Position numbers and translations under genes: made by a program
Source of the DNA: a virus
Length of the DNA: 64,000 bases
Reading direction: 5' to 3' (one strand)
UHGV virus genome: UHGV-0072281
Part shown: positions 4,066 through 56,830 of the stretch, piece by piece
How the letters are laid out: every line of letters begins with the position of its first letter
Position numbering within the stretch: position 1 is the first letter of the stretch
The notes under the pieces: generated by a model
What the model was told of the DNA's origin: nothing
Databases searched by the model: none
What the model saw: the letters and a program-made list of their open reading frames with translations, nothing else

Positions 4066-4293
4066 ATGGAAATCAAACGTATTGTAACCAAAAACAAACA
4101 GATTGTTTACGTCGCAGGTGATAACGAATTCTCGGCGGTAATTAACAGCGAAAATGCGCTCATTATCGGTTATCCGGGTAAAGTTATTACGCGCAGTCAC
4201 CAACGTGCGATTGACAAACTTATCGCGAAAGCGAAAGCGCGCGACGGTGTTGGTTCAGTACAAACCCACACAGGGTTAACGCTGACCCTCTAG
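4066..4293 (+). CDS. Hypothetical protein
   Basis: 75-aa ORF with GGA-rich RBS. Confidence 0.5.
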   Translation: MEIKRIVTKNKQIVYVAGDNEFSAVINSENALIIGYPGKVITRSHQRAIDKLIAKAKARDGVGSVQTHTGLTLTL

Positions 4294-10526: not shown

Positions 10527-10572
10527 CCTACCGCCCGATTCTATGGGCGGTAGGTGTTTTATTTTTTTTTTT
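10527..10572 (+). terminator. Rho-independent terminator
   Basis: Hairpin cctaccgccc-gattctat-gggcggtagg followed by a long T-run. Confidence 0.8.
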
Positions 10573-10588: not shown

Positions 10589-11152
10589 GTGGCCACATCT
10601 TACGTACCTGATTTGAGTCTGACCTCAGCAGAGCTAGTGGTCGCTTTAATCAATCATGATAACGGGTTACAGCTTACGCTAAACGAAATCCGTATTAGCG
10701 GAACCGTAACAAACCCATCACCAACAACTTCGCGTCGTAACACCATCACCGAAATCAGTAAAATCAGAAAACCGGATGGTGCGTCTGTTGTGGTCTACTA
10801 CGACAGACTTGACGCCGATGAGGTATTAACGTCTGAACCTATTTTGATTTCGTTAGACGGTACCGAAGCGAATATCCGTGACGTTCTGAGTGTTGTAAAT
10901 GAACACTGCGGTACGAACTTACAGCCTGAAGACTTACGCGTTTCTGATATTACTTCAGGTAACGATCCTATTGCCGTTAACGTTGCCGACGATTCACCTG
11001 CGTGGATGAATGCGTTTATGGTGACGTTATTTGATAAAACTGAGCGTGCGTTAGCGAACGAAGAAGATGAAATCTTCTGCATCGGTGACGATAGCGTTCT
11101 TACCTTTGAGGTTCCAGATGACGACTCAGCTGAAGAAAACCCGACTACATGA
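10589..11152 (+). CDS. Hypothetical protein, member of fibre-adjacent paralogue family
   Basis: GTG start with GGAGGG RBS; paralogous to 16883-17395 (shared PDLSLTS...NHD...YYDRLxA...GDDSV(V)LTF). Confidence 0.6.
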   Translation: MATSYVPDLSLTSAELVVALINHDNGLQLTLNEIRISGTVTNPSPTTSRRNTITEISKIRKPDGASVVVYYDRLDADEVLTSEPILISLDGTEANIRDVLSVVNEHCGTNLQPEDLRVSDITSGNDPIAVNVADDSPAWMNAFMVTLFDKTERALANEEDEIFCIGDDSVLTFEVPDDDSAEENPTT

Positions 11153-11357
11153 ACTTGATGATTTTTACCGGTAATGGAGGACAAAGCAAACTTTTATCAA
11201 GACTTAGCAAACCAAAATCATGAAAACGCGAAATTGAACATCGCTTTCACGTTAGAAGATGATGTATTAAAACCAGGGCAATAGTAACCCGCTTATAAAA
11301 AATTGGGGGGTAAACTACTCTCCTGATCTTTTAGCTCCCGATAGAGAATTAAATATC

Positions 11358-14300: not shown

Positions 14301-15674
14301 GAATGGGCGCAAGTTTATACTGCACGAGACAGCATTCCGGGTGTCAACACCACAGGTAATCAGGATACGACCGGAAACGCAGCTACCGCTACAAAACTTA
14401 AAACCACACGTAAAATAGGCGGGGTTAATTTTGACGGAACGGGTGATATTAACCTACCAGGTGTAAACCAGCAGGGCAACCAGAACACAACAGGTAACGC
14501 TGCGACAGCGACTAAACTCCAGACTGCCCGAAATATTGGTGGTGTGGCTTTCGATGGTACTAAAGACATCAGTTTACCTGGGGTAAACCAAACAGGGAAT
14601 CAGTCAACTACGGGGAACGCTGCTACTGCAACGAAGTTGCAGACAGCAAGAAGTATCAACAACGTACCATTCGATGGTTCGAAAGATATTACTCTAACGC
14701 CAAGTAATATCGGTGCGGCTGCCTCCTCAATGACTTGGTTAAATACCGGGGATAATGGTGCAGCGCTTAGTACAGATTCTTTTATTACTTTGTTGCAAAA
14801 TAACGGGGCTTTTAATTCCAGAACTTGGATAGCCCGATGCTCTTGGGCGTATGCTCAAAATGGCGTGATTCCAGATAGTGAAACAAAGTGCGGTACTATT
14901 CCACTTGCAGGCTCAGTTATTGAAGTTGTAAGTTTTGGGATGACCAACTACACCATTCGTATCACAACCCCTACGACGACATCGGTTAGCGGAGCAAAAA
15001 CCAACTCTGAGTTTATTTATTGCTATAATGGTAAAGATTATTCTCCAGGTTGGCGACGGCAGTATAACACTGTTAATAAACCGTCTGCTAGTGACGTTGG
15101 CGCTCTACCAACTGGTGGCGGTACTGTCAGTGGCGATTTGACGGTTAATGGTAAACTGGTTACGAAAAATGCCGATTTTCGAATTGCTTACGGTAGTTAC
15201 GGTTTCATTTTACGTAACGATGGCAATAGCACCTATTTCTTAGTAACAGCATCTGGTCAAGCTGCAACGGGTTCCTGGAATAACTTACGACCGATGTATT
15301 TTAGCAACTCTACCGGTCAAGTAACCTTCGGGCACAACGTTACTGGTAACGGGAACGGTTCGTTTAACGACGTACAGATTCGTTCTGACCGTCGTAACAA
15401 ACGTAATCTGGTGAAACTGGATAATGCATTAGACCGTTTAGAACTCCTTACCGGGTATCTGTACGAAGTTCAACATCCTGACGATGGATGGAATACTTCG
15501 GTAGGCTTAATTGCCCAGGATGCATTAGTTGCGTTACCTGAATTGGTTACTGAAGACGATGACGCTATTTCTGGTGAAAAACGTTTACGTTTGAACTATA
15601 ATGGTGTTATTGCGTTGTTGGTAGAGGGCATTAAAGACCTTCGTCGTGAGCTTAAGGAACTCAAGGGGAAATAA
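11358..15674 (+). CDS. Long tail fibre protein with C-terminal intramolecular chaperone (peptidase S74-like) domain
   Basis: 1438 aa; Ala/Thr/Gln-rich coiled-coil-like N-terminal region, about six copies of a ~30-aa repeat (TTGNAATATKLQTAR...FDG..DI.LPGVN), C-terminal block resembling the self-cleaving chaperone of endosialidase-type fibres. Confidence 0.8.
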   Translation: MAKAVKKIRLHDLRPYTGDIGEGVLLFSKDEKDYKLPVREVIADIDTVRNAVADAQTAAAQSQEAATQATQAKVLAEAAKQQTDTVAATVAQQAQTVTEKATEVSTKHTEVLAAKTAVDAQAVSINEKAQAVATSEANVTQAETTVTKKAETVATQAGRVEQSLTAVNEAVASVESSKAAVEAKATQVTSDKETAENAATRSEAAAKRAEEIVAQGTVDATTTSKGVVKLNNTLTSDSVTEAATPSTVKQLNDELQLKANRHNPTFTGVVKAPTPASDSNDTSVSTTAWVRQAIAELVDSSPETLDTLSEIAAALGNDPNFATTITNQLAGKQPLSPLLTAIAAVTTAANKLPYFTGSNQVGLADFTSTARELLAKGSTADIISFLGLKTTVDKAAGAMQRSSNGADIPDKATFAKNIGLSAETYLKFNGEMPVDADINTFGPVEAFMGVWSKATSTNATVAKNFPEENAVGCLEVFKAGNYSGSQRFTVRNGNIYTRHLTAAWNGTNGPWSEWRNVAGSARTLNEQNNLNDLGGEAALGVWRNSSSTLATTALNYPEEGSFAQGVLEVLKGGNYSYTQRYTTRRGNVYVRCLQATWDASNPQWEEWRCVGHQSVSTYFEGDLDTLTSPNRYSITDKATNVPLIDGTKIIGILDVSRRFDNISVEQKFTSFGSGSKTTGRIFTRVFSGQSNGKWSEWREVFTSYSLPLVLGIGGVAAKVDPLDWQTYDFVPGQMLTTPLNTMKNIPAGMDWGTIDGNLVNILVGPSDDTGTGRSMLVWRSTVSVANYRFFAVRIAGEKGSRTITPRQMPVLNAAHTWSEKQTFSKGLAGELTGNASSATKLQTARLIGGVSFDGTKDIALPGVNAQGTQNTTGNAATATKLQTARNINGVKFDGSGDININTLVGRGRVTALAGSNKGTPGIQMYEVYNNGYPTAYGNLLHLGGATAVGEGELLIGWSGTSGAHAPVYIRSRRDTTDAPWSEWAQVYTARDSIPGVNTTGNQDTTGNAATATKLKTTRKIGGVNFDGTGDINLPGVNQQGNQNTTGNAATATKLQTARNIGGVAFDGTKDISLPGVNQTGNQSTTGNAATATKLQTARSINNVPFDGSKDITLTPSNIGAAASSMTWLNTGDNGAALSTDSFITLLQNNGAFNSRTWIARCSWAYAQNGVIPDSETKCGTIPLAGSVIEVVSFGMTNYTIRITTPTTTSVSGAKTNSEFIYCYNGKDYSPGWRRQYNTVNKPSASDVGALPTGGGTVSGDLTVNGKLVTKNADFRIAYGSYGFILRNDGNSTYFLVTASGQAATGSWNNLRPMYFSNSTGQVTFGHNVTGNGNGSFNDVQIRSDRRNKRNLVKLDNALDRLELLTGYLYEVQHPDDGWNTSVGLIAQDALVALPELVTEDDDAISGEKRLRLNYNGVIALLVEGIKDLRRELKELKGK
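13850..14700 (+). repeat. In-frame tandem repeats inside the tail-fibre gene (coordinates approximate)
   Basis: Recurring nucleotide/peptide unit encoding NTTGNAATATKLQTAR-IGGV-FDG; repetition gives spurious antisense ORFs at 13880-14107 and 14360-14569. Confidence 0.7.
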
Positions 15675-15677
15675 AGG

Positions 15678-16220
15678 ATGGCAGTTGTTGAAGTTCCAGG
15701 TTATATCGGTTCTTCTGCAAAGGAAGTTACTGGCGAAGAGATGATGTCTGAAGCGATGACCGAACTCGGCGTTGTCGTACCAGGGATGATGTCTGAAATG
15801 GCAGGTCTGTCAATGGGTTGCTATGTAACGTTTGAGGAGTGGACTACCGTTGAAGATGGCCTTGATGTTCGATGGATCGGTGCGTCTACTTCCGAGTGGA
15901 CAGACGGCTACGGCAAACCGGTCGTTAAAGGAAAAATATCCGGGGCGAAGATGTTTGGTTTGAATGTCGAAGCGGAGCTGATCGGAATGCACTATAAAAA
16001 GCATCCGCGATTCCCTTGGTCAGTCGAACTAAAATGTCGCTGCGAAAAAGGTAGCAATTTCAGTTATACGTTAGACGGTGTAAGCGGTTCTGTATCGAGT
16101 GATGGTACCGGTACAACCGGAATGCAAATTCGTACATTCAAATTTAACAATTTCAGTGCAGCATTTAAGGAAAAGATAGAGCAAGTTGGTGTCAAGATGC
16201 CAACATCACGTAAATATTAA
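15678..16220 (+). CDS. Small Gly-rich protein immediately after the tail fibre gene (possible adhesin or assembly factor)
   Basis: 180 aa; paralogous to 16277-16780 (shared N-terminus MAV...G.SAK..TGE..MS.A...LG...P.MMS.M.G.SMGC). Confidence 0.6.
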   Translation: MAVVEVPGYIGSSAKEVTGEEMMSEAMTELGVVVPGMMSEMAGLSMGCYVTFEEWTTVEDGLDVRWIGASTSEWTDGYGKPVVKGKISGAKMFGLNVEAELIGMHYKKHPRFPWSVELKCRCEKGSNFSYTLDGVSGSVSSDGTGTTGMQIRTFKFNNFSAAFKEKIEQVGVKMPTSRKY

Positions 16221-16227
16221 AAGAGTA

Positions 16228-16253
16228 GCGTAGGGGTGACCTCCCCCCTACGC
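16228..16253 (+). other. Stem-loop (gcgtagggg...cccctacgc) in intergenic region
   Basis: Inverted repeat with 8-nt loop; no clear T-run. Confidence 0.3.
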
Positions 16254-16264
16254 GAATCTTAACA

Positions 16265-16274
16265 GGGGGGGGGG
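16265..16274 (+). repeat. Homopolymeric G10 tract 2 nt upstream of ATG 16277
   Basis: Direct count of 10 consecutive G; occupies the RBS position. Confidence 0.9.
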
Positions 16275-16276
16275 TA

Positions 16277-16780
16277 ATGGCGGTTAACTCGGGTTGGGTC
16301 GGTTCTTCGGCTAAGAGCGAAACGGGCGAACAGTGGATGAGCGCTGCGGGTGCCAAATTGGGATTGGGTAAACCTTTTATGATGAGTCAAATGGTGGGAC
16401 GATCTATGGGCTGTAAAATTTCAACTGCTGCATATAGTGATTCTTTAGGTAAGAAATGGGGTGCTGTGGGATCAAGTTGGCCATTAACTCAGAAAAATCA
16501 GGGAACCATTCAAAACGCGGGTAACTGCGGGGTGGGAACTTTAGTAGGTATAGAGTTACAATTAACGACGGTAGTTGCCAACGCAACGCCTACTCTAGCG
16601 GTCTATTTACAAGGCGGCAGGGCCTCTAACATCACTGCAAATCTAGGCGGTAACACTTGTGCGCTGACCTATCAGCAGGTTATTAATGGCCAACATTATT
16701 ACTGGACCAATAACATTAGTGCCGCGTTCCAAAACGTGATGAAATCGACCGGTACACTAAGAGATTTCAAAATTAGTTAA
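16277..16780 (+). CDS. Small Gly-rich protein, paralogue of 15678-16220
   Basis: 167-aa ORF; N-terminal similarity to upstream gene; poly-G immediately upstream. Confidence 0.6.
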   Translation: MAVNSGWVGSSAKSETGEQWMSAAGAKLGLGKPFMMSQMVGRSMGCKISTAAYSDSLGKKWGAVGSSWPLTQKNQGTIQNAGNCGVGTLVGIELQLTTVVANATPTLAVYLQGGRASNITANLGGNTCALTYQQVINGQHYYWTNNISAAFQNVMKSTGTLRDFKIS

Positions 16781-16817
16781 TTATTTTTCAAACGAATGTG
16801 TTTGAAAACGTAATCGA

Positions 16818-16827
16818 GGGGGGGGGG
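16818..16827 (+). repeat. Homopolymeric G10 tract in intergenic region
   Basis: Direct count of 10 consecutive G between genes 16277-16780 and 16883-17395. Confidence 0.9.
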
Positions 16828-16882
16828 TGAAGTGTTTTTAGCCAACATTTTATGTCTCCCCAACCGTAGGAGGTAAATATAC

Positions 16883-17395
16883 GTGGAACAATTCACGCCA
16901 GATTTGTCGTTAACTTCACTTAACATGGTTATTTCACTGGTTAACCATGACCTCCAACTTGACTTGCAAGAGAATGAGGTCGAAGTCAGTGACGTAAAGA
17001 CCAGTGACGAAATGGAACGTGACACCACTGCTGTTGTAAAGATAAAACGTTCTGGTAACAGAACGTTACAAATCTACTACAACCGTTTAACTGCAGAGCG
17101 GTGGTTAAACCGACAACCTGTACTTGTAAAAGTAACAGGCGAAGGGTTTAATGCGCACGATCTAATCGAATCCATCAACACCGTTTGTGGTGCTAACTTA
17201 CAAACCGACGATTTAACCGACCAGTCGTTCACGGTGGGTAAAGACGCGGTAATATTTAGCATCGCTCCGAGTTCCCTCGGCTACAAAGGTCAGTTCTCCG
17301 TGGTGGTTTTCGGTCCAGATGAAACACCGTGTGGTATCGGTGACGATTCTGTCGTGCTAACGTTTGACAATAAAATCTTAACCTTTGGAGAGTAA
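16883..17395 (+). CDS. Hypothetical protein, paralogue of 10589-11152
   Basis: GTG start with AGGAGG RBS; shared motifs with 10589 gene; precedes second fibre gene. Confidence 0.6.
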   Translation: MEQFTPDLSLTSLNMVISLVNHDLQLDLQENEVEVSDVKTSDEMERDTTAVVKIKRSGNRTLQIYYNRLTAERWLNRQPVLVKVTGEGFNAHDLIESINTVCGANLQTDDLTDQSFTVGKDAVIFSIAPSSLGYKGQFSVVVFGPDETPCGIGDDSVVLTFDNKILTFGE

Positions 17396-17398
17396 TAG

Positions 17399-19531
17399 AT
17401 GAGTCAGCCAATTGGAAAGAAGCGTATTCATGAGCTGGAAACATTTGAAGGTGAATTAGCAGGAGTCGTTCTGCTGATGTCCAAAGACGACAAAGAATAT
17501 AAACTTGACGCATCTCGTTTACAAAACGATAAGCTGTATCTAGCTTGCGGTACACCTTTTCCTAAACTAGTATTCCAAAACGATAAAACACTTTACAATA
17601 TTAATCCGTACAGTGACTACGACACTTATGAAGTTTCTGCAAATAAAGGTCGGGTATCTAAAGTTACTCGTGCCACATTTAGCGTGATGGCTGGGTCTTT
17701 ATCGGTTGGCGAGAAAATACAACTTACAGTTACGCGCAATGGCGTACCATTTCAATTTGAAGTTACCGTATCGGGACCGCGTATCACTACTCCCACTTGG
17801 ACACTTCCAGTTAATGGCGGTAAATTGAGCGTAACGCCAACCTTTGAAGTAACTGACTATCAAGCCTATCCATATACCAACACCGGTAATCAACAGACCG
17901 CTGCCAGTTGGGAAATTTCCACTAGTGAAGATTTCTCAACTACAGTTTTCCAATCACTGAACGACACCGTCAACAAAACAACCATCAGTATCCCAGAAGG
18001 TAAGTTAGAACCAGGTCAAACTTACTACGCACGTGTTCGCTTCCATAACGCAGTAACCGAAAGTGATTGGTCCGTTGTTCAATTCTCAGTCGGCGAAGCA
18101 TTTATTCAGCGTCCTGCACTGATCGAACCCACCGTAGACATGGTGTTAAGCGCATCGAATATTACACTTAAAACTGATGTTTTTAAATGGGTCGGTGACG
18201 AACCTGCGGAGACCCACGTATCGACTGACTGGCAGGTTACTTACGGTAGCAACGATTTTGACGAAATGAATAATCTCGTTAACCAATTAGAAGATGCGAT
18301 TAACCTGACGTCGCTTAAATTACCGTCTGATCGGGTTTACGTTAATAACAGTTATCGTGCACGCGTGCGTTTTCGTGGTGAGAGAAGCGTCAGTGATTGG
18401 TCTGAACCTTTAACGTTCCGTGTAAGTCGCGGGAACGTACCAACAAGTGAATTCCAGTCAATTTCTGCTTCTGGATTTACAGGTAATTCAATCGGTGCTG
18501 AGTTGGCATGTACTGACGACGGTTTGCTGTTTGCTGCTACTGGCGTTGCACAGAAAGCGAAATTCTTACATATCTTTAAGAAAGACTTCCCGTCTTACAA
18601 CAAAGTTGCCTCTTTAACAGCTGCTACTGAGGTTGACGCAGACAGAGATGGTCGCTGTCCGGTCAGTATGTCAGCCGACGGTAAGATTATTGTTGTCGGT
18701 GTTAGCGCATCTAAAGCTAACGAAGACCACGGCGAAGTTATCGTTTACCGTAACCCAGATAACGCTGAGTGGAGTACAATCAACGGAATAACTTTAGCGG
18801 GATTACCCACAGAAGGGTTCCATGGCCTTGCAGTAAAACTGTCAAAAGACGGCAATCGTTTGATTGTGGGTAACGGTACGAAAGTGCTGTCTATGTATTC
18901 CAATACCGATCAATTTGCTACACGTACGGCTGTGTCGCCGACACTAAGTGCCGAAGACGCCACTTGTGGTGGTATTGGTAGCATTGCAATGTCTGAAGAC
19001 GGTAACGGTTTAGTGCTTGGCGAAACTAACGGAACGAAATTCCACGTACTGGCTTGGGAATCGGATAGTTGGGTGACTAAGGCATCTATTACACCAAAAG
19101 ACTTGACTGAGAAAGCAACGATTAAAGTCGCTGCTTCTTCTGACTTGTCTACGATTCTTGTTTCTGTAGTTGAGACACACAAATACTACGTTTACAAGAA
19201 AACCGGTGATAGTTGGTCTCTGTTCCAAACCTTGGATTATACCGAACTGGATTACTCCATTACTTCTACCCGTTACCCGACGGGAGACATTAATGTTGCG
19301 CCTTCCGGAAGCTGGTTAATTTTCGGTATGGTGGGTTCGTTGGGTTCTATTTTCGAATTTCGTAATAGTACCTACCAACGACAAAATAGCATTTACGGCA
19401 GTAGTCTTAGCGATCCTGAGAATTACCACTTCTATACGTCACAAGCCATCAGTGCACAAAACGATTTGTTCGTCGGTGCTGATGTTAAAGAAAGTGCTTC
19501 GTACTTCCCACAAATCAAAGTTTACATGTAA
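17399..19531 (+). CDS. Tail fibre / tail spike-like protein with probable fibronectin type III-like repeats
   Basis: 710 aa; N-terminus (KKRIHELETFEGELAGVVLLMSKDDKEYKL) parallels N-terminus of 11358 fibre (KKIRLHDLRPYTGDIGEGVLLFSKDEKDYKL); repeated ~90-aa beta-rich units ending ..YYARVRFHN.., ..YRARVRFRG.. Confidence 0.65.
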   Translation: MSQPIGKKRIHELETFEGELAGVVLLMSKDDKEYKLDASRLQNDKLYLACGTPFPKLVFQNDKTLYNINPYSDYDTYEVSANKGRVSKVTRATFSVMAGSLSVGEKIQLTVTRNGVPFQFEVTVSGPRITTPTWTLPVNGGKLSVTPTFEVTDYQAYPYTNTGNQQTAASWEISTSEDFSTTVFQSLNDTVNKTTISIPEGKLEPGQTYYARVRFHNAVTESDWSVVQFSVGEAFIQRPALIEPTVDMVLSASNITLKTDVFKWVGDEPAETHVSTDWQVTYGSNDFDEMNNLVNQLEDAINLTSLKLPSDRVYVNNSYRARVRFRGERSVSDWSEPLTFRVSRGNVPTSEFQSISASGFTGNSIGAELACTDDGLLFAATGVAQKAKFLHIFKKDFPSYNKVASLTAATEVDADRDGRCPVSMSADGKIIVVGVSASKANEDHGEVIVYRNPDNAEWSTINGITLAGLPTEGFHGLAVKLSKDGNRLIVGNGTKVLSMYSNTDQFATRTAVSPTLSAEDATCGGIGSIAMSEDGNGLVLGETNGTKFHVLAWESDSWVTKASITPKDLTEKATIKVAASSDLSTILVSVVETHKYYVYKKTGDSWSLFQTLDYTELDYSITSTRYPTGDINVAPSGSWLIFGMVGSLGSIFEFRNSTYQRQNSIYGSSLSDPENYHFYTSQAISAQNDLFVGADVKESASYFPQIKVYM

Positions 19532-20104: not shown

Positions 20105-20148
20105 GGTAGCAGGGGCTAAGCCCCTGCTACCTTTTTCTTTATTTTTTC
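20105..20148 (+). terminator. Rho-independent terminator
   Basis: Hairpin ggtagcagggg-ctaag-cccctgctacc followed by T-rich run. Confidence 0.8.
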
Positions 20149-33944: not shown

Positions 33945-34000
33945 ACAAAAAAAAACAATAAGTTTACCTACCTCCTTTACGGAGGTAGGTATTTTTTATT
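33945..34000. terminator. Bidirectional rho-independent terminator between convergent operons
   Basis: A9 run, hairpin cctacctcc-tttac-ggaggtagg, T-run. Confidence 0.75.
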
Positions 34001-34670: not shown

Positions 34671-35218
34671 TCGTCTTCTCCTTTAATTAAACCCAGCTCG
34701 ATCAGAAGATCAAAATCGATTTTACGAAACTTACTATCAAAATTTGAGTCCCAGTCAATATGTAGTCCTTGACGTTCGTCTTCTGTAAACTCGGGATAAA
34801 CTAAACTATGAAAAGTTTCCCTTTCATCGTAAAAACCATCGATGGTGGACTCTGGGTTTCGTGTGACATAAATTGTTACACCGGGAAACGATAAGCCTAG
34901 GGCGGCTACAGATTCAACACTCGGCTCTTGCAAAGCGCGTCGCAAAAGAACGATTTTATGTTTAGGGAATTCCAGCACGCGCTGTTCAAAACCTGGGTTT
35001 CGTTTCTCGATTTCAGCCACAGAAAGATCGGTAAGTTCTGTACAATACATCGGAATAACAACGGTAACTCCGTGACGAATTAATAATCGCTTAACATCGT
35101 CATTGAAATCTTCGCCGTTAATCTGTACATAACAGCCAAACAGTTTCGTAGTTTCTAAAAACTTTTCCAGAAAACGGAATTTACGCTTCGTAATATTGTG
35201 GATCAGAATTGGCTTCAT
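34646..35218 (-). CDS. Hypothetical protein in radical SAM/peptide locus
   Basis: 190-aa ORF overlapping the SPASM rSAM gene end. Confidence 0.5.
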   Translation of the reverse strand: MKPILIHNITKRKFRFLEKFLETTKLFGCYVQINGEDFNDDVKRLLIRHGVTVVIPMYCTELTDLSVAEIEKRNPGFEQRVLEFPKHKIVLLRRALQEPSVESVAALGLSFPGVTIYVTRNPESTIDGFYDERETFHSLVYPEFTEDERQGLHIDWDSNFDSKFRKIDFDLLIELGLIKGEDECLLLTKA

Positions 35219-36503
35219 CTTTGGCTTCTCTCAATTGTTTTTCTTTCTGGGCGCGTTCACGTACACAGCGAGGACAGTAACACATGCTATTATCGTGAAA
35301 ATCCTTCACGGATGTTGTGCCCATTTTCTGCTTCCAATATTCCGCAACCATCAATTTTGCAGTTGTCCAACCACACTGACGACGTTCAGCGTGATATGCT
35401 TTACGGTCTTCTAACGTCCCTTCCCCATTCTCGTAGGAAGCTGCTGCACAGCTACCACAAGCGTGTTTCATTGGACAACCTAAGCACGTCTCAGGATAGT
35501 TGGTGTATTGCGTCTGAATCTCTTCCAGCAGTTTCCCACCGTCTAAACTAACGAATTCGCGACCGACTAACTCAAATACCGCAGAGCGTGACGTTACAGT
35601 CGACATGAAACGGTTACAACCGAAAATCTTCCTGTCAAACCCTAAACAAGTCATGTGCGTTAATGTCCCGCAGAACGGGCGCAAGCGTTCCGGGTTTAAA
35701 CGTACAGTATCGTTGTAAAGTAGCTGATCACGCCAGTTCGGTTCCCAGATAGTGTCGAAATCTAACCCTTCCGGGATGATATGCGAAAGGGTATTACGTG
35801 GGTTGGTGTGTAAACCCTTTTCAACCCAATAATCGACTACATCCATCATTTGTAGCGCTATCGACGTAGCCATACTCCGTGGCATAATGTCTTCGAAGGT
35901 TACGTTACCAGAAATGGTTCCACCTCCCGCCAAATCGATTAGGGATTTCATACCCGCCGCATAATGTGGGAGTGTCTCCAAAGTAAATGTCGCTTTAACC
36001 CCAAGCTCCGCGATACCTACTTCTTTTAGATAATTGTAACCACGTACAGCGGCCTCGTAGGAACCTTCGCGACTCGTTGTAAAAATACGGTACTTATCGT
36101 GCGACTCAGGTAACCCATCAATAGATACCCCGATAGAAAGTCTGTCCTTCCAACGTTCAATAATTTCCCTGTTCAACGGCCTATCTAATAATGTCCCATT
36201 AGTAGAGATACTAAACATAAACGGACGTTTATGTTCTTCACACAACTGCTCGGCTGTTTCGAAAGCAGTCATTAGAAGCTTAGGCTGCATAAACGGTTCA
36301 CCGCCGATAATGTCAATGATGACTTCTACGTTTGGTAAATCTTTATCGCGTTCAAAGCAGGCATGAAGAAAGTCTACAATATCCGCTGCTTTGTTATTGC
36401 GGGGATATTTACGCTCGTAACAATACTCACAGTCCAAATTACACGACAAGTTTGTAACAATCTGGTAAGTCAACTGTTTCGGGTAATTATTTTCTTGGTT
36501 CAT
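35181..36503 (-). CDS. Radical SAM enzyme with C-terminal SPASM-like Cys-rich domain (putative peptide-modifying maturase)
   Basis: N-terminal CNLDCEYC (C-x3-C-x2-C), IIGGEPF glycine-rich SAM motif, C-terminal Cys clusters incl. CLGCPMKHACGSC. Confidence 0.8.
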   Translation of the reverse strand: MNQENNYPKQLTYQIVTNLSCNLDCEYCYERKYPRNNKAADIVDFLHACFERDKDLPNVEVIIDIIGGEPFMQPKLLMTAFETAEQLCEEHKRPFMFSISTNGTLLDRPLNREIIERWKDRLSIGVSIDGLPESHDKYRIFTTSREGSYEAAVRGYNYLKEVGIAELGVKATFTLETLPHYAAGMKSLIDLAGGGTISGNVTFEDIMPRSMATSIALQMMDVVDYWVEKGLHTNPRNTLSHIIPEGLDFDTIWEPNWRDQLLYNDTVRLNPERLRPFCGTLTHMTCLGFDRKIFGCNRFMSTVTSRSAVFELVGREFVSLDGGKLLEEIQTQYTNYPETCLGCPMKHACGSCAAASYENGEGTLEDRKAYHAERRQCGWTTAKLMVAEYWKQKMGTTSVKDFHDNSMCYCPRCVRERAQKEKQLREAKDEANSDPQYYEA

Positions 36504-41652: not shown

Positions 41653-44600
41653 TTAAGATGTAAACATAAGATTGAACTGGAGTTTGTCGATATCGCGAGT
41701 TTCTGCTGGATTCACGCCGTCGTACGCGGTCGCTACGTAAACCGTTAGCGTACCGTCAGCGTACGAGGATATTACCGGTGGGTTAGTTCCGGTCTGACCA
41801 TCTCGCACAATGAGTGCAGGCTCGCTGGGAAGATTATCAAACTGCCCTTTAACCGCTTTGTATACCAAACCGGACTGTGCAGATAACTCCGTGTCTGTGT
41901 ACACACAGAACGGTGTATCGATGTCAGCTTGTTTGATAGTGGTACCGGATTCGACATCAACCAACTGTACTGCTCCAAACTTCGTGCGATAACTTTCATA
42001 TTCGTTCTTCGGAATAACAAAAGTAACGTGAACACGAACTTCTTCAGCGGGCTTAAAGCCAGTATGTTCTTTTTCCAAATACTGGTTGGCTGATAGTGTC
42101 ACTTTTTGTTCGGCCATCGAACCACCTGCCTGATTTATTCCGTACCGGGCTTCAACAATACCGGTTGGTGCAGCAAGTCGCAATTTCAGAGTCCGATTCG
42201 CCGTTCCTGGATTACCTGGCACTTGAACGCGCAAACTCAATGCTAAGTAAGCATACGTTCCGGTAGTCGGTTTCGTATACGCACCTATCCATTTCATGTT
42301 CGCAGACGCTGCCTGCGTGTTCTCAGAAGCAATGGCTGTCGTAATGTTAGCAGCTACCGCTTTCTGCCAGAATTGGTCGGCGCAGTTCTCATACGCTACT
42401 CTGGCCACGCTCTTATAACCCGAATACGTTTCCTGAATTGGTAACTTAGGACGCGTCGTGATGCCAGACAATGAACCCCATTTTTGACCGTCAACATACC
42501 CTTCGCCCTTCGACGCAGCCGCCGTAGGTGCTTTAACGGGCTTGTTAACCAGGGTTAATAGAGGACCCGTCTTTCTGTCAAACGCTGCTGCTACATCGTG
42601 TTGGTCGATAATTGCTGCGTGGTCTTCCAGCTCTTTCACACGACCCAAGCGTTTTACTTTGTCGATACTGATATCAGTAATACGGCTGGAATCGGTGGTT
42701 ACTGTCCCGACGAACAGTCTCGTTGAAGTATCGGCTAACTGCTCCAAACCGATGCGGTATTGTGCGGTAGAATCCGACACCTCAGCGTGCACGTAGAACG
42801 TCTGGTTAGCGTGATTGGACGGGAACTCGCTGCTTAAATCCACAGACCACGTTGGGAGTGTGTAGCTGCTGCTACCGAAGTCTAATTTGACTTCTTCTGT
42901 CAAATACAGAATCCAACCTTCCGCTGTCTCCACACCAGCAATAATAACCGCCTGACCACCGGTTGAGAACGTCGTGTCGTTAACGAACTCTGCGGCTGTA
43001 TACGCGTTACCTGAACAGAAAACACGGTCAGCTTTAGAGAAAATCAACGCCATCTTGTCCCAATTACCGGCACCCATATAGCATCCAGATTCTGGGTTAT
43101 GCGCAGGAGCCATCTGACGTAACTGCGACTTACCAGGAACGCGAGACCAACCTGAACCTGGGTCGTAGGTATACTTCGCGGCGTAACCTAGTGCGTTTAA
43201 GTCCCCGATATTTCGGATAGTTAACGTATAAGGTAGCCAGATACCGAAGTTAGTTCCATCCGCAGAAGCGAAAATAGGCTGTCCGACGCGACGGGTCTTA
43301 TTACCAGCCTCCTCTCTTAACGACTGATAACTTAAACCGTAGTCTTTATCCAGGAACCAATCCACCAACTTAAAGTTAGCGGAGTTGAACCGTAAGTAAC
43401 CATTCTCTTTAGATGGACTCACCATGAAGTAATAGATGTCAAGAATTCGACGACCGTTACTTAAGGTTTTCATGCACGAAACTTGCAACAAGTCAAATTC
43501 GCACACGGTGTTGATACCCAACATCCAAAGAGCAAACAATGCATTACCGGTTTGATGGGCAGCACTAATACGTTCGTTCGCGTATCCGTTCGCTTGGCCA
43601 GAAGGTGCACCGTCAACGATCATCCGAATCATTTTCTGTCGATCGGCTTCTTCTAGCGTTAAGCGTTCGGAAGACAACGCGAAGTTACCGTAGATGTTAC
43701 GATACGGGAACGTTTCTGCTTTGGTCAAATACCAACCGTTTAACTGTCCGTGACGCTCCTCAGGAGTCATGCACGCAGCCATACAGCTAAGCTGCTCATA
43801 TAGCGTTGGATCGACTTCACGACGGTTGTTGTTCGGACCGTATCCGCTATAACCCGGAACATCGTAAGGTTTGTTCGGATCAACTTCTACTTCGATGGTG
43901 TAACGGTTACGTGGGTTAGACATCCACACTTTGTTCGAACCACCAATCCCAACAGGATGGGAAAGACCAATGGTATAAATAGAACCACGACCTTTATCCC
44001 AGGTAAACGTTCCTTCGCCTGAGGTATTGTTTGGGTTATCGTAACGCAGATAATCGAAAAATTCTTTGCCTTGTGTTCCTTTAATAGAAACGTTAGGCAT
44101 TTGGTCCGCGTCGTTAATCTGCCAGCAGGAAAGCATCATTCCTGTTCCATTAGGCTTAGCGTACGTTGCAAAACAACGATTGTTTGCTTGACCACCGCCC
44201 CACTTACGGCTGGTTTCTACAGTTGAACCATCCGCGAAAGAGAGTGTAGTAGCATCAGCCTTGATGGGAAAGCGTTCGCGGCCTTCTAACGTAACCTTGC
44301 CCGTCGACGTATCGATTGTAAAACTTGTTGCCCACTGACGAAAGTTAATTTGTGAGCTGTCAGCCGCTGCAAACCACACAGTAGGCATATGGTTCACACG
44401 AATCACGCCGTCGCGCACTGCACAAGCATGGTTACATTCTGGACCGTGAACAAAGTTGCAACCAATTGTCCATTTAGCCCGTGCTTCCGGCGTCAAATAC
44501 GTAAAGAACTGACCCGTTTGTGACTCTTCGGTTTTCTGGCCAATGCGTAGGCAGAGGTTATCTCCGAATTGTCCCATCTCCCCGTTTAGTGTTACGCGTT

Positions 44601-46836
44601 CAAACTCCAGCGTGGTGCTAGTAGACAAATCGTCCTTACGTAGACGCCAAGCTGCTACTGCGTAAGCAGAGTTATTTACCGTAGAGCGGAGAAGATAAAC
44701 GTAATCCTCAACCAACACAACATCATCGGCTTCTGGCCACGGATTCCAGGTTTGTTCCACAGTACCGCTGGGGTTGCCGTTACGGTACACGGGCATCGTA
44801 ACGCGACATACCACCGTGTGTTTAGTGTGATCCATCGAACCATTAAACAACACCAAATAACGGTTATTATCAGAACCCAGACAAATAATCGCTTCCTGAC
44901 CACCGATCAATATAGCTTTCAGGGTCACTCCAGGATATTTACTCATCCCGGCAGGGTGATATTTCACTGAGGTCTGCTGCGGATTTACAAACGCGTTTGA
45001 CGTGTTAATGTCAGCATAGCCGTAATAAATGGCTTCTGTACCCGGTACGCCGTTAGAACCGTTACGGAGCGAATAAACCTTACCCTGCTGATACCCAACA
45101 ACCCCTTTTTGATAAGACTGGTTTTTGGTATAACCCGAATAGTTACCTAGCGCTGGGATAGGTAAGAAGTTCTTGTTACCGAACTTCGCACCACCTACCG
45201 TCCACGCCGGTAAGATGGTATTCAGTTTATCAGAGACTTTCTTAATCTCTTTTGCGAACAGCCACCCTTGACGCGACGTGACAGCTTTATCGTTAGTAGT
45301 GTCAATCGCATCCCAGAGCTGCAAGATACCGTCAACCGATGCACTACCAATTGGAATGTTATCCAAGTCAGCAGTGGTGTGTGTATGCGTCTTCAAACTC
45401 TTGTTTTTCAACACGTTCGTTAACGCTTTCGTCACCGGCTTAGCACTTGGCGTGGTGTTATCCATCTTATCGGTACCGAAATCGGTTTTCGTTAAGGTTA
45501 ACACCATACTGTCGCCTACCTTAACAAACCCTTTACCGTTAACGGTATAGTCATCGTCAACGTACAGGTCCAAGCGGTCTTTTAATTCGGTTACGGCTTT
45601 CTGGGAGATAGCAGTACCTAACGCCGCAGACGTGGAGATATTCGTAATCGAGAACAACCCATAAACTGATTCGGTCGCTGTGGGAATATTCGCGTTTAAC
45701 GTAACCGGGTTAGTCTGTTTTGCGGTACCGTACGGTTTTACAGTGTCTGACGCTTTGAAATACGCGTTTGCTTCGAGCAACGTTACTGACGTCAGGTACA
45801 TGTTCACCATTTCTGGCGTAACCAGATACACGGAGTTATAAACCGGCGCTAATACATCCTGTTCTGACCCCGAGTGAACCCAAAGCGTATTCAGACCCGC
45901 ACTGAATTCAACCGCTAAACCTGATTCGTTGTTGTCCTGGTCTGCTTTAATCACCAACGGTTGTGGCGAGGTAATTAACCACTTATCACCGCGAATACTG
46001 ATGATGTGGCCACCTGACGTTTTAAACGTTAATTCAATACCGTTAGTAGTGCCCCATCGACCGTAAACAGTACCGAGGGCTTCACCCATTAACTGGTCAA
46101 CGTCTGATTGCTCAATACCCGCTGAACCCATCAGCGTAGCCAACTCGTCAATCGTCAACCCAAACGCTTTTGTAGCGTCAACAGCGCGGCCTAATACCGG
46201 GAGAGCAGCAATGTCGTCAGTGGTATAATGATGAGCGTTAGGATTCCGGTGGTGTTGGTATAACTCTTCGTCGAAAACCTTTTTACCGTTCTCGTAAATC
46301 AGGTTAGTAACTTCACTAAACGCAGCATCTAACTCTGTAGAACGCTTAATGATTTTCTTACGAATGTCTTCTAACGCCTTAACAACCTCATCTCTCAGAA
46401 TAGCTTCTTCTAAGTTAGCAGGCGGGTCGATTGGTTGAATAACCGGCGCATACGCCATTAGTTCAGACCAGTCCACGTTACGTGGGTCTTTCAGGTCAGT
46501 ACGAACTAAGAACTTCCCGATTTCAGATTGCGGTACACGATATTGACGTGCTACCCCTAAAATCTCATATTCGATTTCTGTTGCAGTAAGCAACATAAAC
46601 CCGCCGTAAATCTGATCTTGTTCAGCTTCTGCGAGTTCTTTAAAGTAATAGCCTAAATAGTAGTCCAACCCCTCAATCAGAGTACGACGTCCGTTAGGCG
46701 CGGTATCGTCGGCTACTGTGAGTTTTAATCCGATACGATAAAAAGGTCCTTCAGGTGGAATGACCACGTTAAATCGGTTAGGGTACGTTGCTGTGCTTAG
46801 CGTACCGTTAAACTGCGCCGCGTCTTCTCTCGGCAT
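41653..46836 (-). CDS. Giant tail fibre / tail spike-like structural protein
   Basis: 1727 aa; N-terminal block PPEGPFYRIGLKL...GLDYYL homologous to neighbours; AGGAG RBS. Confidence 0.65.
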   Translation of the reverse strand: MPREDAAQFNGTLSTATYPNRFNVVIPPEGPFYRIGLKLTVADDTAPNGRRTLIEGLDYYLGYYFKELAEAEQDQIYGGFMLLTATEIEYEILGVARQYRVPQSEIGKFLVRTDLKDPRNVDWSELMAYAPVIQPIDPPANLEEAILRDEVVKALEDIRKKIIKRSTELDAAFSEVTNLIYENGKKVFDEELYQHHRNPNAHHYTTDDIAALPVLGRAVDATKAFGLTIDELATLMGSAGIEQSDVDQLMGEALGTVYGRWGTTNGIELTFKTSGGHIISIRGDKWLITSPQPLVIKADQDNNESGLAVEFSAGLNTLWVHSGSEQDVLAPVYNSVYLVTPEMVNMYLTSVTLLEANAYFKASDTVKPYGTAKQTNPVTLNANIPTATESVYGLFSITNISTSAALGTAISQKAVTELKDRLDLYVDDDYTVNGKGFVKVGDSMVLTLTKTDFGTDKMDNTTPSAKPVTKALTNVLKNKSLKTHTHTTADLDNIPIGSASVDGILQLWDAIDTTNDKAVTSRQGWLFAKEIKKVSDKLNTILPAWTVGGAKFGNKNFLPIPALGNYSGYTKNQSYQKGVVGYQQGKVYSLRNGSNGVPGTEAIYYGYADINTSNAFVNPQQTSVKYHPAGMSKYPGVTLKAILIGGQEAIICLGSDNNRYLVLFNGSMDHTKHTVVCRVTMPVYRNGNPSGTVEQTWNPWPEADDVVLVEDYVYLLRSTVNNSAYAVAAWRLRKDDLSTSTTLEFERVTLNGEMGQFGDNLCLRIGQKTEESQTGQFFTYLTPEARAKWTIGCNFVHGPECNHACAVRDGVIRVNHMPTVWFAAADSSQINFRQWATSFTIDTSTGKVTLEGRERFPIKADATTLSFADGSTVETSRKWGGGQANNRCFATYAKPNGTGMMLSCWQINDADQMPNVSIKGTQGKEFFDYLRYDNPNNTSGEGTFTWDKGRGSIYTIGLSHPVGIGGSNKVWMSNPRNRYTIEVEVDPNKPYDVPGYSGYGPNNNRREVDPTLYEQLSCMAACMTPEERHGQLNGWYLTKAETFPYRNIYGNFALSSERLTLEEADRQKMIRMIVDGAPSGQANGYANERISAAHQTGNALFALWMLGINTVCEFDLLQVSCMKTLSNGRRILDIYYFMVSPSKENGYLRFNSANFKLVDWFLDKDYGLSYQSLREEAGNKTRRVGQPIFASADGTNFGIWLPYTLTIRNIGDLNALGYAAKYTYDPGSGWSRVPGKSQLRQMAPAHNPESGCYMGAGNWDKMALIFSKADRVFCSGNAYTAAEFVNDTTFSTGGQAVIIAGVETAEGWILYLTEEVKLDFGSSSYTLPTWSVDLSSEFPSNHANQTFYVHAEVSDSTAQYRIGLEQLADTSTRLFVGTVTTDSSRITDISIDKVKRLGRVKELEDHAAIIDQHDVAAAFDRKTGPLLTLVNKPVKAPTAAASKGEGYVDGQKWGSLSGITTRPKLPIQETYSGYKSVARVAYENCADQFWQKAVAANITTAIASENTQAASANMKWIGAYTKPTTGTYAYLALSLRVQVPGNPGTANRTLKLRLAAPTGIVEARYGINQAGGSMAEQKVTLSANQYLEKEHTGFKPAEEVRVHVTFVIPKNEYESYRTKFGAVQLVDVESGTTIKQADIDTPFCVYTDTELSAQSGLVYKAVKGQFDNLPSEPALIVRDGQTGTNPPVISSYADGTLTVYVATAYDGVNPAETRDIDKLQFNLMFTS

Positions 46837-46931
46837 CGTAAAGACTCCTACTTTTTAAATAAAATGGATACCCCTCCCCATTACAGGGAGGGGTTACCTA
46901 CGGACACACAACTGCCCGCAGGCAGCCTGTC

Positions 46932-49900
46932 CTAAGTACGATCCCCTAACTGCTTCCCGTTAAGTTCTCGTTTCAGTACAGAAAGTATCCATTTCCACGC
47001 TTTACTCGTGATATGGTACGGATTGCGTTTCTCCATTAAGAACTGCTTTTCACCGCTACGCAGTTCAAAGCTCTGCGCATTAAGGTAGTCCTGACGATAG
47101 ATTTTCTCATCAAAAACTTCCAATGAACAGGTAAAGTTAAGTTCGTACCCTTCAGGATTATTACCCGGCGGGTCTAAGACAATATAGATGTCCTGGCCTA
47201 CACGTAAATCCGTTGGAGTGATGGTAATCGCTTTACCCACATCGGCGTTAGTCGACAGAGCAAACTCCGCACTGTCCGTAGACGCTAAGAATGGGTCTTT
47301 CCCTGCGTCGCCAATAATCACTTTACCTGGCCAGTTACTTTTTATCGTTCCCGTCACTTTTGCAATTCGATATTGCTGTTTATCAACACCTTGTGCAAAA
47401 CGGAGAATGAGTTTGTGACGATAACGACTTGCAGCAACCTTAGTCGTACTCCACACATTGTTCCAGGAAGTGTGCAGTTCATTGTTCTTCGCCATCAACG
47501 CACCACGAGACAGTTTACGGTCAAAGAACTGCGCAGGTAACTGCCCATCGTGAGAAACCGCAACACTTCCCTGACCAGTTGGCAAGGCAATGCTCTCCGT
47601 GGCACGGTATTTTTGACTAATCTCATAAGTCGCAGGGTCAATCACAGACTGACTATAATCAGCGTCTTTGTTATCAGCCAAATACCCAACGGATGAATCC
47701 AGATACGACTCAAACAACGAACGTAAGTAATGATACTTATCAATGTCGATATTGTTCGTAACCGGATCAATCAGTGCGTGGCTAATCGTTACTCGGCATT
47801 TCGCGCTCAGTTCTTTAAACGATAATCCTATTCCGTCACCGGTGAAATAATCCACTAAGTCGAACGGGAATTGAATTTCCAACTGACGTTGTTTAACTGT
47901 CGTCGTCCCAAACTGCGAGAACGACAACGCTAAACGTAACACACGCGTACTTACGTTATAACGGTAACGAATCATCCCACGAGGTGCATGGTTTGCAGAG
48001 ATTTTATCTCGGGCGGCGCCCCAGCCAATCAAATCGAGAATCGCAGCATTCGTTTCTTCACCGTTGAACAACACATCCTTAAACGTTGCATTCACCGCTG
48101 TTTCCCCAGACTCTTCCATTACCAACGGAATGTCAGTAACGGCAGAATCTGAACGGGAACCAATCCCCAGCTTACACGCTTTGGCAGTTAGGTCAATGCG
48201 CAGATAGCGACGTTTAACGCTACTCCCTTGCGTTGACGAGCATAGAACCAAATCCGGCGCAGCAGCAAGGGCTTGCGTCCCACCAACATCGTCAACATCG
48301 AATGCAAACGAGCCTTCGAAAGTCGGTGCGTTGTTTTCTTTCGGGTTAAACGGTGTAAACCAACAATACGGCGTAGCACCTTCAGGTATCACAACGTATT
48401 GAAGACTGGATTTCACGTTTTGGTTGTGTGCGTAAGTATAAAGACCGCGACTGACAAGATGGAAAACATCACCTGTACCGGCTGTTAACGCTTTCCTAAA
48501 GATACACGCTCTCGGTTCGGCAATAGCACGGTTTAATAACGGCAAACGTGGGTTATCCGTTAGCGTCCAGTCCACAGAACTGAGTCCGTGCGCTTTACGA
48601 GTGTCGATGTGTTCACTAACCTCGGCACTTTTCCCGAAATCGAACGTGGTTTCGAACCCAACTGTTTTATTCGCGTAATTCTCACCAGCAACAATATCAA
48701 CGTAACCGATATAACCACGTTCAGGATCAACTGCGATGCTCTGAATAGGTTCAGCACGCGAATATAGAGAGCCTGTGAGCATGTTAACGTACAGATAGTG
48801 ACGAATCCCTACGTGGGTTGTAACAAACTCCTGGAGAAGCTCTACGCGCGTTTCAGGGCCACTGAAGTAAACAGGGTAATCACCGTCGTAAACTTCAAAT
48901 TGCACAGCTGCTGATTTTGCAGTGTCACTGCATTCTGCTTTAACAGCGATTGTGTAATTTTCAACATCTAACGACGTTGTGTAGTTCATTAACAACGGAG
49001 ATTCACCGGTAGCGGCCACAACACCATTTACATAAATGGTTATCCTTCCACCGCCAGCGGCGTAAACAAACAGCCTATTCTGATAAGCTTTGACCCGTAT
49101 TTTAGCCAACACTGATACAACGGACTGTTCACCCATCTGTGTAGCGCTTTTACCTACCGGAACTGACTGAAACCCCATTGTTGGAGGATCAACAATTCCA
49201 TCCCAACTAATCCCAGTACCTCTACTAACTTTCCCCGTAGGCCAAGTCAGCTCAAGCTGGTTGTTCGGTGAGAACCAGTTAAACATCGGGGTGGTTTGTA
49301 AGTCAATCGCACCAGTAACGACACCGTCGGCCTTTCCTCCATTCAGCAAATAGAAGTATTTCAAATCCTGAACGGAGATTGTCGTACCCTGGCTATTAAA
49401 ACGCCAGTCTGCGCCTTTTACAGCAGCGAAATCAGTTACTGTTCCTTCTTTCGCGTTTGCTATCGCAGCGGCCACCACATCTAAACGTGCTGAAAGCTCT
49501 TTTAAGATGTTCGGTACCACTGCTCGGTTTTCAACTAAACCGTTCTGGTTAGTTGCGTAACGGCCAATACCGTAAATAGACTGCGAGGCTTTATAAATGC
49601 CTAACTCTGACCAGCCGTGATGGTGGCCGACATCTGCTAAACCGCTAACCGATGTATTCAATGCGGTAGACAACGGTTTGTCAAGGTCTGCGGTGTTGTC
49701 CGCTTGCCCTAATCCCAGATCGGCTTTCGTGATTGTCCTGGAACCGTCGTCCATCGCTTTACCGTTAATCATGGTCGTTTTAGTCACGTACCCTGATAAG
49801 TCGGTTGAATACGGCGTTAATGACGCAGGGGTTGCAGCAACCCCAACCGTTTCTGTGCCTTTACCGGTTTTAAGTTTAACGACACCTTTTTCAGTGGTTG

Positions 49901-51116: not shown

Positions 51117-51126
51117 AAAATTCTCC

Positions 51127-56782: not shown

Positions 56783-56830
56783 GTAACCTCCTACCCTCTA
56801 AGAGGGTAGGAGTAGCACGTTTTTTTTTTC
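56770..56830. terminator. Bidirectional rho-independent terminator
   Basis: A-run, hairpin cctaccctc-taag-agggtagg, then T10 run. Confidence 0.75.

Follow-up and report, generated by a model that had tools for sequence, protein, structure and literature searches.

Length-variable G-runs at ribosome-binding positions around a tail fibre adhesin gene of an enterobacterial jumbo phage

Why would a phage genome keep two uninterrupted runs of ten G's, one on either side of a small gene close to a tail fibre gene? We took up this question for a stretch of 64,000 nucleotides (nt) of the virus genome UHGV-0072281 (the window), in which the enclosed gene encodes a gp38-type tail fibre adhesin (adhesin B) and the runs ahead of it (tract 1) and behind it (tract 2) lie in the two adjoining spacers, 1 and 2. 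The window is part of an uncultured jumbo phage of enterobacteria that is related to SPN3US and about 225 kilobases (kb) in size, with contigs of about 222 to 226 kb. A first-pass annotation had drawn attention to the two G10 runs and had noticed no others of this length; both runs were confirmed in the sequence (Table 1), and a homopolymer count showed that no other run of G or C in the 64 kb exceeds 6, the next longest being one G6 and two C6. The base composition of the window gives an expected G10 count of 0.013. Longer runs of A or T do occur (A9 at 33947-33955, T10 at 56820-56829 and T11 at 10562, the last being the tail of a canonical terminator); the A9 and the T10 lie between or after genes and resemble terminator tails by position. 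The enclosed gene had been placed just downstream of the tail fibre gene, which is right as to the neighborhood but not as to direct adjacency, the gene of a second adhesin (adhesin A) lying between the two.

The best-supported origin of the tracts, judged from comparison with related sequences, is that both are Shine-Dalgarno sites turned into pure G-runs, either by loss of an A or by expansion of a 3' G5. Our main explanation goes further, and modeling leaves us evenly poised on whether it is right: these slipping, Shine-Dalgarno-derived runs would affect expression, with tract 1 and the hairpin upstream of it tuning the translation of adhesin B. The tracts would behave as slippage-prone simple-sequence repeats within one late operon (DUF7941a, fibre 1, adhesin A, adhesin B, DUF7941b and fibre 2).

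Length variation and origin of the runs

We collected related loci by searching IMG/VR with adhesin B, and protein look-ups gave further contigs from ENA, JGI, NCBI and Logan. A motif to the right of tract 2, picked to avoid selecting for tract length, led to three further metagenome contigs of 222-225 kb. Adhesin A had no relative in IMG/VR, searches of the GTDB genome collection returned nothing, and the lead from one protein (P0008) ended in the context of an unrelated prophage. The general order in the relatives is fibre, first adhesin, adhesin B, DUF7941 and fibre 2. Adhesin B is conserved (82-95% identity), and the position of the first adhesin is variously filled by A (180 amino acids [aa]), by another protein of 212-263 aa (A') or by nothing.

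A G-run stands at the same two positions in independent assemblies, so the tracts are not assembly artefacts of the window. Across 20 independent assemblies, tract 2 was G10 in seven and G9 in six, G11 in two, and G6, G7, G8 and G12 in one each; in the remaining assembly it was interrupted (GGAGGGGG), and the mode of the lengths was 9-10. With identical flanks, it was G8, G9 or G10 in different assemblies. Tract 1 was G6, G9 or G10 in relatives, and the hairpin ahead of it has runs of its own that vary as well (G4-G10 and C6-C10). The closest comparisons involved two contigs. One (L047) is identical to the window across 8.5 kb but for one G fewer in tract 2; the other (L046) differs by 14 single-nucleotide polymorphisms, by one G fewer in tract 1 and by six additional G's in the 5' arm of the hairpin, and its hairpin core is the exact reverse complement of that of the window (TGACCT to AGGTCA). 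These results favor the hypermutability that the first-pass annotation had supposed over an invariant tract length. They also show three of the features by which contingency loci are recognized: an uninterrupted slippable repeat (a homopolymer of about 7 or more, here G10 twice), a gene at the interface with the environment (here a Gp38_N/phrog_1121 tail fibre adhesin) and a difference in length between close genomes with the same flanks.

Homopolymer length calls are error-prone, and one Logan assembly, that of ERR526064, breaks inside the G-run of the spacer 1 hairpin (end of L059, start of L054), where the ENA assembly spans it. The runs or their length differences might on these grounds be short-read poly-G errors. 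However, more than 20 independent assemblies (ENA, JGI, NCBI and Logan) have a G-run at these positions, among them the finished circular record NZ_CP173450.1 (G10), and stutter cannot account for the larger length differences (G6, G10 and G12; C6 and C10) or for the exactly inverted hairpin core. We thus regard error as a very improbable source of the variation, and as to the existence of the runs this view is largely refuted. The break in ERR526064 could itself represent heterogeneity within the sample, in run length or in hairpin orientation.

A third G-run was found in sister genomes with the A' arrangement, where it includes the G of the adhesin B ATG. It is G5 in most of them and G8 or G9 in others. 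The G8 state is in frame and adds one glycine, giving a product of 168 aa (P0019), whereas the G9 state (L041, 8287-8295) is out of frame, in agreement with calls of 147 aa (P0020) and 187 aa (P0015). G9 also opens a reading frame upstream, which overlaps the A' gene at its end.

Two other runs were observed outside this set. In L050 (510-1061; ENA ERZ19110867, coverage of about 2.8), the adhesin B frame continues through the spacer and a G11 to a TGA immediately past the run, giving a call of 183 aa, which may reflect a frameshifted or low-quality contig. In the Stx-type prophage loci from IMG/VR (L023-L035), a G-run of 7, 8, 9 or 10 lies at about position 4074, 560 nt past the adhesin gene; its left flank is the same throughout (…TTTTCTCC), and its right flank takes one of two forms (CCGGCAAGAGCG… or (T)GCCCCTATTAAG…). 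This run marks a homology breakpoint in the Escherichia coli prophages, and no clear open reading frame (ORF) crosses it.

Next, we aligned spacer 1 of the window with those of L046, L042/L043, L045, the Enterobacter element and two Stx-type phages. All have a homologous hairpin that is followed by a Shine-Dalgarno sequence, and relatives carry GGAGGGGG, GGAGGGG, GGGGAGAT or GGATAT at the position of tract 1 (GGAGGGG or GGGGAGAT in L045 and L002). In the Enterobacter ludwigii element (L062), both tracts align with GGAGGGGG; the two tract positions are occupied by AAAAGGAGGGGGTAAAATG and ATCGGAGGGGGTGAAATG, with ATCGGAGGGGGTGAAATG at that of tract 2. The placement of the runs agrees with that of ribosome-binding sites: tract 1 ends 2 nt before the ATG of adhesin B, and tract 2 ends 4 nt before the GTG or ATG of a mini-ORF. 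Because relatives align with ordinary Shine-Dalgarno sequences at these positions, the tracts appear to be ribosome-binding sites turned homopolymer, gene-start signals and not duplication scars.

The first-pass annotation had offered a second idea, that the tracts mark the boundary of a duplicated module, since the enclosed gene looked like a paralogue of the gene before it. The paralogy was upheld: adhesins A and B share 30% identity over their whole length (E = 3e-14), and both have a Gp38_N domain (PF21721; E = 4e-11 for A and 1e-20 for B). Because they are only 30% identical, sequence comparison makes them old paralogues, and a recent tandem duplication of the adhesin gene is ruled out. 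The boundary part of the idea fared better, as the tracts coincide with mosaic breakpoints. Homology breaks exactly at tract 2, where L006 and L061 have an unrelated left flank and a right flank of about 95-100% identity, while L004 has a conserved left flank and a diverged right one.

The tracts may then be recombination landmarks, the G-runs and hairpins serving as microhomology or fragile sites for the exchange, insertion and deletion of adhesin cassettes, and the two G10s being direct repeats left by the insertion of an adhesin B cassette. The variety of adhesin sets (B alone in L003 and L040, A with B, or A' with B) speaks for this, as does the left flank of site 1 (CTTAACA-Gn), which resembles that of site 2 in L050 (CCTTAACC-G11). 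Furthermore, three distinct phage strains with different adhesin cassettes (L005, L006 and L047) occur together in the JGI metagenome 3300045988, which provides an opportunity for the cassette exchange seen at the tracts. Yet any phage would be expected to have its mosaic junctions in intergenic spacers, whether or not a special sequence lies there, and relatives without a homopolymer have Shine-Dalgarno sequences at the tract positions. Moreover, the low identity of A and B leaves no room for a recent duplication, and no recombinase or endonuclease gene lies nearby. We consider recombination unlikely to be why the runs are there, and it can operate alongside translational tuning.

Predicted RNA structures in the two spacers

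The GC-rich hairpin of spacer 1 contains a C/U-rich stretch, ACCTCCCCCCT (16239-16249), that is complementary to tract 1. Changing the length of tract 1 leaves the spacing between ribosome site and ATG as it is, the 3' end of the run being fixed relative to the ATG. We folded the RNA over a series of run lengths and found a predicted switch. With G8 or shorter, a hairpin (GCGUAGGGG/CCCCUACGC) forms and the ribosome-binding region is about 60-70% unpaired; from G9 upward, tract 1 is instead paired with the C/U stretch CCUCCCCCC, and the region is about 10-17% unpaired. The G8-to-G9 switch was stable over six flank choices. The predicted threshold depended on the hairpin background: that of the window (core flipped, C-rich arm CCUCCCCCC; natural tract 1 G10) closes between G8 and G9, that of L042 (hairpin C10; natural tract 1 G6) closes between G6 and G7/8, and that of L046 (hairpin 5' arm G10; natural tract 1 G9) never closes. 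In two of these three backgrounds, the natural length of tract 1 thus lies at most two slippage steps from the predicted threshold.

In our main explanation, tract 1 would serve adhesin B as ribosome-binding site, and two things would decide whether this site is free: the length of the run and the state of the hairpin upstream. A hairpin in the orientation of the window would present ACCUCCCCCCU (16239-16249), which resembles the 3' end of 16S ribosomal RNA. A run of G9 or longer would pair with it and be buried, whereas with G8 or shorter the hairpin would close on itself and leave the site free. Growth of the G arm or of the C run of the hairpin, or inversion of its core, would shift or abolish the threshold. 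Since A and B share the fibre-docking domain Gp38_N, the ratio of B to A translation would set the mix of fibre tips on progeny virions, and the outcome would be a graded bet-hedge on host range. A bolder version, in which spacer 1 is a heritable, mutation-driven riboregulator whose variable G-run, C/U-run, competing G arm and invertible core together form a multistate switch, strikes us as possible but doubtful.

The invertible core was observed directly: positions 16237-16244 of the window are exactly reverse-complemented relative to L046, L052 and L056, which swaps CCUCC for GGAGG in the transcript. A hairpin of the same design ahead of the fibre 1 gene (11305-11323 in the window) has its loop inverted between L038 and L039/L041 (GCTT and AAAGC). 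Both inversions fit the signature of replication template switching between short inverted repeats.

Spacer 2 begins with an AT-rich hairpin. Relatives preserve it, although its loop varies and the top of its stem exchanges A-T for G-C. Tract 2 follows, forming both the 5' base of a predicted leader stem-loop (Table 1) and the Shine-Dalgarno position of the mini-ORF. When we folded the leader without tract 2, CUCC paired with the AGGAGG (16868-16873) of the DUF7941b gene; with at least six G's in tract 2, this AGGAGG was about 67% free in most flank choices. The stem-loop in the leader of the second fibre module would thus sequester CUCCCC from the DUF7941b AGGAGG. Natural variants keep the stem paired, replacing G·U by G-C or by A-U, and in the predicted folds of the sequence-diverged versions from L004, L050 and L042 a G-run and a C-run likewise close the stem; RNAalifold found no double compensatory pairs in the leader stem, the sequences being too similar. 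Because any length of at least six frees the AGGAGG, the model suggests that the variation of tract 2 is probably tolerated and not regulatory.

The mini-ORF does not encode a conserved leader peptide, as neither its length (2, 3, 10 or 14 codons in relatives) nor its reading frame is kept. Its length varies because the T-run after its start (16835-16839 in the window) varies, being T4 in L042/L043, T5 in most loci and T7 in L048; such a change takes the mini-ORF from 14 codons to 2 or 3.

How much of this calls for a function? The neutral alternative is that GGAGGGGG sites lost an A or expanded their G5, slip freely once longer than about 7, and drift in length without consequence; runs of at least five G's that end 2-4 nt before the start would still function, and the nearby C-runs would be arms of ordinary intercistronic hairpins. 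The alignment with ordinary Shine-Dalgarno sequences, the fixed 3' edge of tract 1, which makes the spacing independent of length, and the indifference of the tract 2 fold to lengths above G6 are all in keeping with it, and so are GGGGGAGGT-loop-ACCTCCCCC hairpins elsewhere in the phage lineage, which are ordinary terminator-like elements. Long runs, however, would be expected to shrink or to become interrupted, and pure runs of 9-12 persist at the same site even though the flanking proteins have diverged by 5-25%. Moreover, the rest of the 64 kb lacks comparable G or C runs, the third G-run at the adhesin B start codon has an out-of-frame state in sister genomes, and natural tract lengths sit near the predicted structural threshold in two of the three hairpin backgrounds. 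Neutral slippage is a strong rival that we rate as a real possibility, short of even.

Several points weigh against translational tuning itself. The switch is a thermodynamic prediction only, with about 1.5-2 kcal/mol between the two folds, and any C-run pairs with any G-run in silico. Cotranscriptional folding favors the upstream hairpin. The relatives are too alike for double compensatory changes, and the covariation term is slightly unfavorable. Folding predicted no length dependence for tract 2 above G6, one-base homopolymer differences in short-read assemblies may be consensus errors, and the competition of A and B for one fibre tip is an assumption. In addition, the G10 of the window, predicted to be closed, would imply low translation of the very adhesin that is conserved, which is odd unless it represents one phase of a switch. 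The first-pass annotation had proposed that expression is stochastically tuned by tract length; with a predicted RNA structural switch as the sole length-dependent effect derived, this remains plausible as a model.

We also considered other ways in which the runs could act. A frameshift or fusion through tract 1 is ruled out, because the adhesin B frame has a TAG at 16226-16228 and then no start codon before the ATG, and because adhesin A stops at 16218-16220, ahead of the run. A variable-spacer promoter was rejected after a sigma-70 scan gave no match at either tract; of the candidates, TTAACA-G10-TAATGG has a spacer of only 10 nt, and in TTGAAA-N20-TGAAGT the -10 element is poor. Phages of the SPN3US type are known to rely on RNA polymerases of their own. 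A G-quadruplex element such as that of Neisseria pilE was rejected, as quadruplex-aware folding gave only a weak two-tetrad G-quadruplex in spacer 1 and none in spacer 2. Neither the spacer 1 hairpin nor the AT-rich hairpin of spacer 2 qualifies as an intrinsic terminator, as both lack a U-tail on the plus strand. The RNA families of Rfam 15 had no match in 15600-17500, and the single match elsewhere was at chance level (E = 0.4; 25 bits against a gathering score of 100). No invertase, reverse transcriptase, recombinase or endonuclease genes were found among the ORFs at 10.5-21 kb, and a recombinase-driven invertible segment or a diversity-generating retroelement was rejected for want of such a gene nearby, the inverted piece being a 6-nt hairpin core.

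The two-fibre block and its phage

The features of the block are listed in Table 1. The terminator scan found canonical terminators only at its two edges (10527 and 20105) and none at either G10 spacer, so the block from DUF7941a to fibre 2 looks like one operon, in which both G10 spacers are intercistronic. A gene for a DUF4376 protein comes after tail fibre 2.

Table 1. Positions of the G-runs, predicted RNA structures and genes of the two-fibre block in the window
Feature	Position	Strand	Description
Canonical intrinsic terminator	10527-10572	+	11-bp GC stem, T-rich tail ending in T11; closes the upstream unit (left edge of the block)
DUF7941 protein a	10589-11152		Paralogue of the 16883-17395 product; first gene of the proposed late operon
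Long tail fibre 1, 1438 aa	11358-15674	+	Phage_fiber_2, Gp34_trimer, C-terminal Peptidase_S74 intramolecular chaperone domain
Adhesin A, 180 aa, gp38-type	15678-16220	+	Gp38_N, phrog_1121; start 3 nt past fibre 1 stop
GC-rich hairpin, spacer 1	16228-16253	+	Arms GCGTAGGGG (16228-16236) and CCCCTACGC (16245-16253); loop TGACCTCC
G10 tract 1	16265-16274	+	Followed by TA, then ATG of adhesin B; 3' end 2 nt from ATG
Adhesin B, 167 aa, gp38-type	16277-16780	+	Gp38_N E = 1e-20; phrog_1121 E = 1e-45; stop codon 16778-16780
AT-rich hairpin, spacer 2	16785-16808	+	TTTTCAAAC-GAATGT-GTTTGAAAA
G10 tract 2	16818-16827	+	In 102-nt spacer between adhesin B stop and GTG at 16883
Predicted leader stem-loop	16819-16861	+	G7 pairs with UCUCCCC (16855-16861); GUGAAGUGUU pairs with AACAUUUUAU; z = -3.5
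Mini-ORF	16832-16876	+	GTG, 13 codons and TAA; start 4 nt past tract 2, stop just past AGGAGG
DUF7941 virion protein b, 170 aa	16883-17395	+	GTG start; first gene of the second fibre module
Tail fibre 2, 710 aa	17399-19531	+	N-terminus like that of fibre 1
Canonical intrinsic terminator	20105-20141	+	12-bp stem and T-run; closes the two-fibre block

Adhesins A and B both belong to phrog_1121 ("tail fiber adhesin"), the adhesin family of the Stx phage type, and their assignment as gp38-type proteins follows from the N-terminal Gp38_N domain and the position of their genes after a long tail fibre gene. Residues 1-61 of adhesin B match the structure of S16 gp38 (PDB 6F45, chain D; E = 3e-4). The glycine-rich C-terminal receptor-binding domain of Pfam GP38 (PF05268) had no match in A or B of the window; it is present in the 261-aa first adhesin of another locus (L060). 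Fibre 1 ends in a self-cleaving S74 chaperone domain, and gp38-type adhesins come next, which would dock after the chaperone has been released.

Elsewhere in the window, large virion proteins have 45-50% identity to counterparts in SPN3US and the Erwinia jumbo phages; no close isolate was found in the phage collection searched. Three very large paralogous virion proteins (1727, 1394 and 1441 aa; phrog_7449, phrog_8078 and phrog_7557) are encoded at 41653-55452 on the minus strand, and a radical SAM protein (phrog_1802) is encoded at 35181-36503, also on the minus strand. Sequences of the phage come from gut metagenomes and from Salmonella, Shigella and E. coli assemblies; judged by protein-cluster members, contigs of about 222-226 kb are present in many isolate assemblies of these three. 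Two finished circular records of the element, from E. coli 98232 (NZ_CP173450.1, 221,873 bp) and Enterobacter ludwigii (NZ_CP134650.1, 222,441 bp), were deposited as "plasmids" of the non-mobilizable kind. The plasmid-type records and the many isolate contigs suggest a carrier state or pseudolysogeny, or a phage-plasmid lifestyle.

Known systems and what the locus would mean

Hypermutable tracts in phage host-recognition genes are already known. Receptor-binding genes of Campylobacter phages have hypermutable polyG tracts, as described for Sorensen et al. (Cell Rep 2021) where that work is cited in PMC10579305, and the contingency loci of coliphages T2 and T4 are A-runs within genes (bioRxiv 10.1101/2025.10.21.683753). 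As there, homopolymers of a phage change length by polymerase slippage and diversify the progeny, and as in the Campylobacter phages, the genes affected are host-recognition genes; the ON/OFF frameshift of the Campylobacter type has a match in the G5/G8/G9 run at the adhesin B start codon of the sister genomes. The tracts of the window differ in being non-coding, at ribosome-binding positions in intercistronic spacers where no frameshift is possible, and, relative to the Campylobacter phages, in belonging to an SPN3US-related jumbo phage with an enterobacterial host.

The nearest parallel to the predicted switch is the tlpB-hp0102 operon of Helicobacter pylori, where the small RNA RepG pairs with a variable G-repeat in the leader and gives graded expression, with repression at 7-12 G (PMC8295292). 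We predict the same logic for ACCUCCCCCCU and tract 1, namely that a C/U-rich segment pairs with a 5'-leader G-repeat whose length varies. RepG, however, acts in trans and was demonstrated experimentally, whereas the partner predicted here lies in cis, in a hairpin 15 nt upstream. Furthermore, the G-repeat of the window would itself be the ribosome-binding site, and the two systems have no sequence homology.

The adhesins resemble the gp38 adhesins of T2/T6/S16-type phages and the "tail fibre adhesin / receptor recognizing protein Gp38" of Stx phages (PMC3157838; PDB 6F45) in having a Gp38_N docking domain and in lying 3' of a long tail fibre gene. The adhesins of Stx phages and prophages have 58-64% identity to adhesin B and are preceded by a homologous spacer with hairpin and Shine-Dalgarno sequence, which in the Stx phages is an ordinary one and not a homopolymer. 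The tandem adhesin genes, the lack of a PF05268 match in A or B and the S74 end of the fibre set the window apart from the gp38 systems.

Inversion of a spacer between inverted repeats by replication template switching has been described (PMC8604942, PMC8794818), and the spacer 1 core (window and L046) and the fibre 1 hairpin loop (L038 and L039/L041) bear its signature, unlike the recombinase-driven invertible segments Mu G and P1 C. Here, in contrast to the described cases, the inversion exchanges an anti-Shine-Dalgarno-like CCUCC for a Shine-Dalgarno-like GGAGG beside a variable G-run, and this swap may have a regulatory consequence. What is new in this locus is that, in a jumbo phage of enterobacteria, non-coding tracts at ribosome-binding sites are combined with a C/U-run in cis and a hairpin core that can invert.

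So far, slippage repeats have been shown to diversify phage progeny in coding tracts only, first those of Campylobacter phages and, most recently, those of T-even phages. Without translational tuning, the locus would remain a clean natural case of the decay of Shine-Dalgarno sequences into hypermutable homopolymers. If tuning holds, slippage diversification would extend to an enterobacterial jumbo phage that is largely unrecognized in Salmonella, Shigella and E. coli assemblies, and non-coding tracts would give a graded output through RNA structure that balances two alternative receptor-binding proteins. A riboregulator in spacer 1, if real, would set the fibre-tip mix, and with it the host range, of each progeny particle of a jumbo phage, by a contingency logic that works through RNA structure in cis, frameshift and promoter spacing playing no part. 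If tuning holds, the host-range state could also be read from the genotype, with the length of the tract and the orientation of the hairpin as markers, which would be relevant to strain variation in metagenomes and to phage therapy, as stocks raised from single plaques would be heterogeneous.

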